64,000 nucleotides of DNA from Obrimoposthia wandeli (taxonomy: Eukaryota): NCBI GenBank assembly GCA_977020255.1, contig CDROCS010003044.1:1-64000 (forward strand), written 5' to 3'. The position numbers and the translations under genes are program-made. Shown piece after piece: positions 42,433 to 45,400 of the stretch; the stretch's first letter is position 1; each line of letters opens with the position of its first letter. Under the pieces are notes generated by a model. The model ran no database searches. It was not told where the DNA came from and saw only the letters and a list, made by a program, of their open reading frames with translations.

Positions 42433-45400
42433 ATGCCTATGGTAAGAATTTATTTTTATTATTTCCTTATTAATATTTATTATTTCAGATTACGTGTAAC
42501 CTATTCCCTGCGTATTGTGGTGCTTCGGCTCCGCATGGAGGAGAGTCCTGCATGGAGACAATGTCTGCATACTACCGGACAAAGTCTCAAGGTGTTCACT
42601 TCTTCGTCTGCCCCTTCTGCAGAACAATGGAGGAGAAGGAGTTTCGAGAATTCTTCTGTGAACATCGAGCTCACCTATCGTGTTTCACGGCCAACAACAA
42701 GAAGAGGGATATCGTCCAATTGGTGCGCGATTCGCAGGCCGCTCCAGCTCCACCTCCAATTCCAGTGGCAGTCAGTCTACCAGTTTATGGTCCTGCCATT
42801 GGTCCTTATCTCCCGGCTCCTGATTCTGCAGCTGCCCCATCCACTCAAATGTCTAACAATGAGTGGATGAATGACATCTCCGAAGAAGATTTCACGGAGT
42901 TAGCACCAGCAACCCAATTCTCAAACAATGACTGGATGCGAAATATCACCCAGTCAGATTTCGAGATGGAGCAGCCTCAGTGGAGCGATAACTCATGTTT
43001 GGAGACCATCAAGGAATCCGATTTCGTCGAGTCAACGGACGACAGCTGGATGGATTCCATCAATGAAGAGGACTTCATTCCAGCTCAACTTGGATTGTCA
43101 TCATTAGGTATATATATATATATTTTTGTAAATTGTGATTATATATTTTATTTTTTAATATATATATTTTATTTTTATTTTTTATTCAGGAAATACCGTT
43201 CTACAATAGTCATCTGCTACAACAGATATGCCTCCACCATCGCGAGTGCCTACATCGATGTCAGCACGCCTTAGAGGTAATAATTTTTAAAAATATATTT
43301 ATTTTTTAATATATTTATTTCAGCAGCACTAACCTCTACAACAGCTGCTTCTTCATCGGCAAGGTCAGCGGTCCCTTCAACATCAGCTACAGTTGCCTCA
43401 ACATCGGCAGCATCAACAATAGCAGCACTTTCAACCTCAGCTGCGATTGTCTCAACTATTAATATAAATAGTTGTCTTCCCGTTCAATTAGGGGTAGGTT
43501 TGTCAGCGACACATATAGAGTATCACCTAAATAATAAATATGTTATAGTTAAGGTGCCATTAGGAAATGAAATTTTATTAAACATAGGTGTAGATTCAAA
43601 TATTGAAAATCTTTTAAAATCAGAAGTGACTAAATTAGGACAGGCTAAGGTTCAATTTTGCGCAACAGTGCAGTTTAAAAATGTCAATGAAGAAACTAAA
43701 ACTTGGGTAATTTCACATAAAGCAACTGTTTTCTATGATAATTTTGTAACTGAAATTGGAAGAAACCTGGATGAAAAAATTGCTAATTATAGCGAGTTAA
43801 GTAGTGGATGGACTCTAGTTAGAATTCACGATGTTAGCTTTGTTCTAACAAAGTTCACTGACATGATATATCTTTCGGGGAGTTCATACATTCCTTCACC
43901 TAGATCTCTTCAACTTTCACGTTCCATTGTTAACGTACAAAACAGTGATAACCTTTGCTTTCTGTATAGCGTGTTGGCCATCCTCAAAAGGGATGTAATT
44001 ACTGAGCATAGAGAGCGTGTCAGTAAATATACCCCTTTTTTAAATGAATTGCAGTATCATGGAATAGATTTTCCTGTTAAATTAACTGCGATATCAAGAT
44101 TTGAACATCTTAATAACTTAAGTATTAATGTATTCAAATATAATACTGATATCCCAGTTAATGTAACAGATGAAGAAATATTTAAAAATCCTTTTGTAGA
44201 TGTAATTTATAAGAGCAAAAATGCGGGGTCTCAGGTCAACTTAATTTTGCTCGAACATAATAATAAATTCCATTATGCTGCAATTCCCAATTTAGATCGT
44301 CTTCTAAATTTAGATAATGGAGCCTTACCGGTTAGGATAAGGTGTAAGTGGTGTCATAGATGTTTGCATGGATTCCGATCCGAGCTCTCTTACAGCAAAC
44401 ATCTGACATTATGTTCACTGAATCCTGATGACAATACGCTATATAGCATGCCTAAGGATAAGGATTTAAAATTCAGGGATTGGGCAAAATGCATACCCGT
44501 GGAATTCAGGGTGTATGCAGATTTTGAGTCAATTTTAGCATTGCACGACCAGTATGAGAGTATTCACATACCGGCTTCGGCATGACTATTATTCTTAGGC
44601 CCCAATATTACCCAGTATCACAAATTTTCCGGTCCAAATTGTATTTTAGATTTTATGTTAAAATTAGAGGAATTAGGAACAACAAATGTCAAACCGTGGT
44701 ATGATCTCAATGCTCATCAAGCAATGATCATGACAGGCATAGACTGGGTTAATTTTAATTCTTGTAGATTATGTTATTTGTGTGGAACCCAGTCTAAGTT
44801 AGTCAGAGATCACGATCATGTTACGGGGCGATACTTGGGAGCGGCGTGCAACCTTTGTAACCTTGGCCGTCGTCTCCCTAAAAAACCACGCATTCCCATC
44901 GTGTTTCATAACCTCAAAGGCTATGATTTGCATCATATACTTAAATATGCGTTTGGTACATTAATATCTTGGGAAATTTCATGTATACCTCAAACTTCAG
45001 AGAAATATTTATCTTTAACTGCATATACTGAATACTGCAGTTTAAGATTCATAGATTCTCTGCAGTTTTTGAGCGGGTCTTTAAAAAATTTAACGGCATC
45101 TTTAAATGCATGGCCAATTACACAGTCAGTGTTCCCAGCTTCGGTTAACGATAAGGGGATTTTCCGTAGAAATTTGCGAAAACCTTTGCAGATTTAGAAA
45201 ATACAACTGAAATCCCCCCCATAACTGAATTTGAAAGTGTAAGTCTTCAAGACTATAATGAGGCCCGTACATTTTGGGTGAATAATTGTCGAAATCTTTT
45301 AGAATATATGCTTTATTATATGAAGTTAGACATTTATCTTTTAGCTGATGTTTTTGAGTCCTTTCGTGTAAAATCTTTAGCAGAAGATGGGCTAGATCTC

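Follow-up and report, generated by a model that had tools for sequence, protein, structure and literature searches.

Three probable spliceosomal introns in the 5′ region of a Polinton/Maverick polymerase gene that encodes an N-terminal Cys/His module

The adenovirus E2B mRNAs for the polymerase and pTP carry their start codon in a tiny upstream exon, joined to the body of the message by host splicing; in these viruses the leader splicing is long range and the terminal protein is a separate product. The protein-primed polymerase of Polintons/Mavericks (adintoviruses), pPolB, has been described as a chain of domains in the order TP-vOTU-EXO-PALM (Krupovic et al., PMC11071308), in a paper whose main text uses the words "intron" and "zinc" 0 times. 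Intact Mavericks of vertebrates have been reported to be without introns (PMC8097293), and in nematode Mavericks the core genes are described as intronless, introns being confined to cargo genes (bioRxiv 2022.07.12.499685). The parts of the adintovirus and nematode pPolB papers available to us mention no spliced pPolB, and the statement of an earlier, sequence-only reading of this locus that pPolB is normally a single ORF agrees with what the available text of the vertebrate and nematode reports says of core genes. Polinton-like elements of dinoflagellates contain introners, mobile families that were reportedly mostly gained after integration (PMC11957031), and group I introns have been reported in protist elements. 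Among the papers listed by literature searches for introns in Polinton core genes, none deals with a spliced animal pPolB; the founding Polinton papers or Repbase may contain earlier notices of multi-exon genes. What is unusual here is the presence of introns in core genes; the kind of element, Polinton/Maverick, is already known.

The locus lies in a window of 64,000 nt, the whole stretch of DNA analysed, within an element that extends from about 41324 to 50754 (Table 1). We consider it very probable, from the comparisons of sequence set out below, that the region from 42433 is the 5′ end of a multi-copy Polinton/Maverick pPolB gene that would be transcribed by the host and from which three spliceosomal introns would be removed, to yield one polyprotein.

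Table 1. Coordinates, strand and main properties of the features in the window
Feature	Position	Strand	Remarks
TATA-like box	42388..42394	+	About 47 nt 5′ of the ATG; putative promoter element
Exon 1, coding part	42433..42441	+	9 nt, ATG plus two codons; 9-nt layout also in families B and C
Intron 1	42442..42488	+	47 nt, phase 0; position common to families B and C
Exon 2, 5′ part	42489..42728	+	Cys/His module, predicted to bind zinc; omega 0.17
Exon 2, 3′ part	42729..43107	+	Pro/Ala stretch and about four acidic W/F repeats; omega 0.38, p=0.018
Intron 2	43108..43189	+	82 nt, phase 1; confined to family A; copies differ in its length
Exon 3	43190..43276	+	87 nt, S/T/P-rich, symmetric; premature TAG 43207 in the window copy
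Intron 3	43277..43323	+	47 nt, phase 1; confined to family A; another in-frame acceptor lies 3 nt further downstream
Exon 4, 5′ part	43324..43517	+	S/T/A linker, Q-L-G motif (43485) at its end; omega 0.24, p=0.02
Terminal-protein domain	43530..43860	+	Little-finger/PAD fold; model pLDDT 87.7
vOTU-like protease domain (predicted)	43896..44300	+	Cys motif DNLCF 43947, His motif HY 44271
pPolB exonuclease and palm, broken	44301..45960	+	Stop 44583, frameshift ~45170, C-terminus deleted
Retroviral-type integrase with chromodomain	45962..46975	−	PF00665 (E=1.9e-12), PF00385
A32-like packaging ATPase	47586..48284	−	PF04665 above cut-off
TBP-like gene	48572-49100	−	PF00352, E=2e-10; family B has one too
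TBP-like gene intron	48904..48941	−	38 nt, phase 1; at the same glycine as a 37-nt intron in family B
Second pPolB (family B), divergent, decayed	21236..25290	+	Found with the module profile
Family B pPolB, first exon	21236-21244	+	9 nt, then intron from 21245
Family B pPolB, intron in polymerase core	from ~23752	+	108 nt

Downstream of the 5′ region, the model of the terminal-protein domain superimposes on PolIV (4ir1) with Z 8.6 and an rmsd of 2.4 over 92 aligned residues, and that of the vOTU-like domain on Otu2 (8c83) with Z 7.4 and an rmsd of 3.8 over 103, many further OTU entries following in the same search; the domain is a predicted protease. PF03175 scores above its cut-off in 44586-45194 and again in 45170-45979. 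The former interval also holds an Endonuclease VII-like (PF02945) zinc domain, in the exonuclease region, as do many relatives. To judge from its protein-primed polymerase, integrase and A32-like ATPase, the element belongs to the Polintons/Mavericks. The adintovirus paper, too, reportedly mentions TBP. In the window copy an in-frame stretch of 69 nt is missing near 43512, where other copies have a basic segment; this copy also has a deletion of about 2.3 kb and has lost the C-terminus of pPolB, the presumed protease and major capsid genes and most of the presumed minor capsid gene. With the stops at 43207 and 44583, the 69-nt loss, the frameshift and the deletion, this copy is dead. In other copies, ORFs of the expected size and order are those that we take, by eye, to encode an adenain-type protease and the major and minor capsid proteins. 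Inverted terminal repeats were found in family B copies and in one copy of family A, the family of the window element, but not for the window copy itself. On the left side, a small ORF at 41551-41949, 5′ of pPolB and also present in family B, has an exonuclease-like D-x-E start by eye and no Pfam match; tandem repeats of 57 nt lie just 5′ of the putative pPolB promoter (42152-42347), and repeats of 134-329 nt occupy 40103-41329, to the left of the element's matched end. A DEAD-box fragment is found at 36694-37065 of the window.

The assembly measures 1.35 Gb. The second subunit of host RNA polymerase II is 66-69% identical to the best 120 matches listed, of which the named ones are animals, none of them close, and the host thus appears from its sequence to be a fast-evolving animal. 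A first look across the genome gave 81225 pPolB candidates, plus many long open frames; Polintons, of at least five families, have expanded on a very large scale in this host. The assembly also holds multi-copy intronless genes for an RNA polymerase second subunit of 870-890 aa, plus split forms (C401, C197, C2497, C3647, C767 and C5845), possibly integrated large DNA viruses, and many RNA polymerase genes of bacterial size, some with many in-frame TGA codons, possibly from symbionts or contaminants.

The three introns had been predicted, with their GT and CAG ends, at exactly the positions and lengths given in Table 1, together with an N-terminal extension of some 300 aa, and 42433-43499 does amount to 297 codons once the introns are removed. 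All three have the U2-type features of a GT donor, a pyrimidine-rich 3′ end and a YAG acceptor, and their removal, in phases 0, 1 and 1, keeps the frame. Their GC content is 0.13, 0.07 and 0.06, against 0.44, 0.49 and 0.48 in exons 1 to 3 and 0.36 in exon 4. Translated singly, exon 3 has one stop, TAG 43207, and exon 4 another, TGA 44583, whereas exons 1 and 2 have none; up to 44583, the TAG is the single stop in the frame from the ATG at 42433, in agreement with the earlier reading. Contrary to that reading, no polymerase ORF begins at 43500, the stop-to-stop frame being 43284-44585. The phase compatibility of three introns in a row had been held unlikely to arise by chance, but 146 of 478 double GT-AG choices also link the exon-2 and exon-4 frames, as do 25 of 100 single choices, and we have therefore dropped it as a stand-alone argument. 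Among the frame-linking double choices, the pair formed by introns 2 and 3 has the lowest GC. Reading exon 3 in another frame, or using the donor at 43128, runs into stops or needs other acceptors to reach exon 4. Since the first in-frame ATG of the exon-4 frame, at about 43863, lies beyond the terminal-protein domain, a usable start must be upstream. A TATA-like motif is found 36-54 nt 5′ of the ATG in five metagenomic or viral relatives as well (L075, L076, L079, L080 and L085), and the box is visible in most copies of an older subfamily of family A.

Of 5420 candidate close copies, 40 were scored and 30 loci, window included, were analysed. Their GT donors are present in 30, 29 and 30 copies and their AG acceptors in 29, 30 and 30, for introns 1 to 3 respectively; as these copies are 90-97% identical, splice sites held in common say little, and such identity is uninformative as a sole argument. 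Changes in length affect intron 2, which contains a hypervariable poly-T/A tract, in 10/30 copies (7 of them by other than a multiple of three), and exons 2 and 3 in 1/30 each. Decay is evident among the copies: only 16/30 have an exon 2 without stops, singleton variants are neutral (omega 0.93), and exon-2 variants present in at least four family A copies are too few to be informative (4 synonymous, 1 non-synonymous). The earlier reading asked whether 43207 is a sense codon in other copies, and it is one in 28/30 close and 24/25 older copies; being a stop in only 2/30 close copies, the TAG represents decay of the window copy.

The older subfamily, A′ (25 copies, about 84% identical to family A), has all three introns in the same places, with GT in 24, 20 and 19 copies and AG in 22, 17 and 20; a loss of sites in 1-8 of the 25 is expected of decay, but is not proof of it. 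Taken over the 30 close and the 25 older copies, the sites are mostly kept, which supports the gene structure proposed in the earlier reading. Column-by-column comparison of A with A′, from which codons with multiple differences were excluded (15 of them in exon 2), gave 23 synonymous and 22 non-synonymous changes in exon 2 (omega 0.26, p=1e-5), against omega values of 1.14 and 1.28 in its other frames. Exon 2 and the start of exon 4 are under purifying selection between the subfamilies. The introns differ at 7/47, 13/68 and 7/46 positions and the exons at 81/619 and 18/87, so that, between A and A′, the intron rate is not clearly higher than the exon rate.

Exon 3 is the part of the spliced model of which we are less sure. 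It could usually be skipped, intron 2, exon 3 and intron 3 then forming one intron of 216 nt; the exon is symmetric, 43108-43323 works as an in-frame single intron, and in the A versus A′ comparison exon 3 gives no significant signal of selection, with 2 synonymous and 3 non-synonymous changes (p=0.44). A different frame of exon 3 even gives omega 0.20 (p=0.08), yet it contains 2 stop columns, and in the older-subfamily comparison only the predicted frame is free of stops. Moreover, the length of the exon differs by ±6 nt between subfamilies in most copies, its GC (0.48) is that of an exon between segments of 6-7% GC with sites of their own, and most copies of the older subfamily retain its inner sites (AG 17/25, GT 19/25). 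We therefore regard habitual skipping as rather improbable.

The protein sequence points to the same gene structure. The sequence-only reading placed a Zn module first in the product, then the acidic repeats, the S/T/A linker and the terminal-protein/polymerase region; with a Cys/His module in first place, this order is favoured by single-ORF homologues, selection, the kept splice sites and the common position of intron 1. The ten database proteins closest to the terminal-protein region are 38-48% identical to it, and four of them start with the Cys/His module. A profile built solely from the N-termini of unbroken relatives (P0001, P0002, P0006 and P0009) matches exon 2 with E=3.4e-15 among 970 six-frame peptides of the window, scoring 52.6 bits, whereas the best of 1000 shuffles reaches 7.1 bits. 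Of 83 metagenomic or viral loci scanned, five (L073, L074, L075, L076 and L080) encode the module in the same unbroken ORF as the polymerase, L082 does so weakly, and in L085 they are split; the remaining loci, many of them partial or outside the clade, gave no module match. A full-library search found 24 relatives of the module, and in 20 that were aligned residues C21, C41, C44, H59 and H62 are invariant, a pattern that suggests zinc binding. The module is modelled with a pLDDT of 80; fold searches gave no match (best Z 3.3), which does not imply a novel fold, an ESM Atlas search gave leads all below 0.8, and no Pfam family (0) was found for the window's module, with scattered weak zinc-finger matches in at most 4/20 relatives. 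As intronless relatives carry the extension, it is not special to family A; it is a normal part of pPolB in this clade, and the introns are the unusual part. The acidic repeats, three of which were matched (at 42864, 42933 and 43047), are missing from families B and C; they resemble, as we take it, binding motifs for host factors (RPA or basal transcription factors, for instance). Relatives have a Q-x-G-G-type motif ahead of the basic segment, presumably akin to an adenoviral protease site. In L073 a free-standing gene of the same Cys/His module (L073:52-735), with a coiled-coil-like tail and a long A run after it, sits just upstream of an intronless pPolB.

That arrangement in L073 is one reason to ask whether exon 2 is instead a separate small protein, made by retention of intron 2 up to a stop at 43272, with the polymerase read from a start of its own. 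The frame 42474-43274 is indeed open through intron 2 in the window and in 20/30 close copies, and the databases contain many short proteins with the module only. Read-through of intron 2, however, meets a stop in 21/25 older copies, which rules out a conserved retention of this intron, and in exon 4 the first in-frame ATG comes only once the terminal-protein domain has ended. In addition, the two parts are fused in one ORF among relatives, and several of the short database proteins have AT-rich tails that look like intron read-through. A separate protein as the main product is thus very unlikely, although one from intron-2-retaining transcripts may exist as a minor isoform.

Introns are also found in other families and genes. 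Family A is 46-48% identical in protein sequence to families B, C, D and E, and A, B and C have intron 1 at the same position, after nucleotide 9 (codon 3). In family B it is of 37-45 nt and phase 0, with GT in 28/30 copies and Cys as the following codon in 28/30, and no stop separates the module from the linker in 27/30; in family C (8 copies fetched), all 7/7 that hold the region have the 9-nt exon and an intron of 44 nt. Introns 2 and 3 are specific to family A. Conversely, B and C have in common an intron that A lacks, at FFSIP-G of the polymerase core; it is 108-111 nt long, with an in-frame stop, in B and 41-46 nt long in C. In families B, C and D/E the module is in the same exon as the polymerase, and in D and E (4 copies each) the coding frame is unbroken, with a candidate intron of 50-61 nt just 5′ of the ATG. 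The protease genes of A and B begin with an exon of 5 nt, after which comes a phase-2 intron. At the 3′ end of pPolB, a candidate intron was discarded, as it was positioned beyond the stop codon. Of the metagenomic loci, L085 carries five introns (42-46 nt) within its extension, one of which interrupts the module, and L079 has three of 43-45 nt, two of them in the terminal-protein and OTU region; where introns interrupt conserved motifs, as in FFSIP-G (families B and C), YGTKFQ-G (L085) and HRS-G-SSY (L079) and in the TBP-like gene, homology fixes the junction. A tree of 34 rows (midpoint root; D and E left out) unites intron-bearing and intronless relatives in a single clade (100/100), where L079 and L085 are nested within rows that have no introns. 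The family B copy in the window is part of a decayed Polinton fragment (20671-26994), whose terminal repeat is a 186-nt tandem repeat; copies of this family elsewhere are 12.6 kb long with inverted ends. Further pPolB fragments at 27348-28221 and 16513-16784 represent family C and an inverted family A piece.

That the AT-rich segments are post-integration insertions or products of microsatellite decay, as their low complexity, the poly-T/A tract of intron 2, the decay of the copies (exon 2 stop-free in 16/30, singleton omega 0.93) and the mostly late arrival of introners in the dinoflagellate elements, in the available text of that report (PMC11957031), might suggest, is largely refuted and hardly credible, because the segments are in the same places in all 30 close and most of the 25 older copies and so predate copying, because positions in three genes are common to families at 46-48% identity, and because removing the segments restores colinearity in conserved motifs.

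We return to the reading of a spliced gene for one polyprotein. Host polymerase II would start transcription past the TATA box, and the spliceosome would take out the three short introns. The product would then comprise the predicted zinc module, acidic repeats, S/T/A linker, a basic nuclear-import segment, terminal protein, vOTU protease, exonuclease and palm. Given the likeness of the Q-x-G-G-type motif to an adenoviral protease site, the element's own protease may cut off the extension near it. The extension would probably serve to recruit host factors, through the zinc module and the acidic repeats. A short start-proximal intron is old in the Polintons of this host, lying after codon 3 in A, B and C and, as a candidate, in the 5′ UTR in D and E; introns 2 and 3 are likely to be later gains of family A, tolerated in a disordered linker and copied with active elements. 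The age of the start-proximal introns suggests selection for a spliced, host-like mRNA, which would likely be better exported and less silenced. A broader proposal, of which we are doubtful, is that the Polinton clade with the Cys/His module is dependent on the spliceosome, with introns in the polymerase, protease and TBP-like genes kept across deep splits and further gains in single lineages next to intronless sisters, the introns serving to give the RNAs the appearance of host mRNA and to evade the silencing of intronless elements, and the cleaved extension, with its zinc finger and acidic repeats, to recruit host transcription or replication factors.

Because Polintons are sought, and called intact, as intronless ORFs, lineages with spliced genes would score as broken or be overlooked. 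Introns passed on by the copying of active elements, and retained in families less than 50% identical, point to a virus-like replicase whose message is made in the nucleus and spliced by the host. The clade has sister lineages with and without introns and, within a single genome, datable copies by the thousand, and it suits the study of recent intron gain. It could also serve to examine whether introns protect invading DNA against silencing, as has reportedly been shown for the human HUSH complex (PMC8770142). The N-terminal module, moreover, is a conserved domain without a family or fold match in the searches made.

As in the pPolB described by Krupovic et al. (PMC11071308), in so far as the available text of that paper goes, the protein encoded here has a little-finger/PAD terminal protein, an OTU fold with Cys and His motifs and PF03175; unlike it, it has an extra extension of 300 aa with an unclassified Cys/His module, and its coding sequence is split by introns. 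In family B, integrase and ATPase genes and the ORFs taken by eye for protease and capsid-like genes are linked within terminal inverted repeats, which resembles the arrangement in the Polintons/Mavericks of the same paper (PMC11071308). The core gene set, the high copy number and the decay of most copies are also those of vertebrate and nematode Mavericks, as described in the parts of those reports at hand (PMC8097293; bioRxiv 2022.07.12.499685), but here the pPolB, protease and TBP-like genes have introns common to families. Spliceosomal-type introns inside Polinton-like elements are known from the available account of dinoflagellates (PMC11957031); in contrast to the introners described there, those found here are short and AT-rich, unrelated in sequence and length, placed at common positions and inherited through copying of the element. 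Finally, the start codon in a tiny upstream exon of a gene for a related protein-primed polymerase suggests a parallel with adenovirus E2B, although here the introns are of 37-111 nt and the terminal protein is fused to the polymerase.
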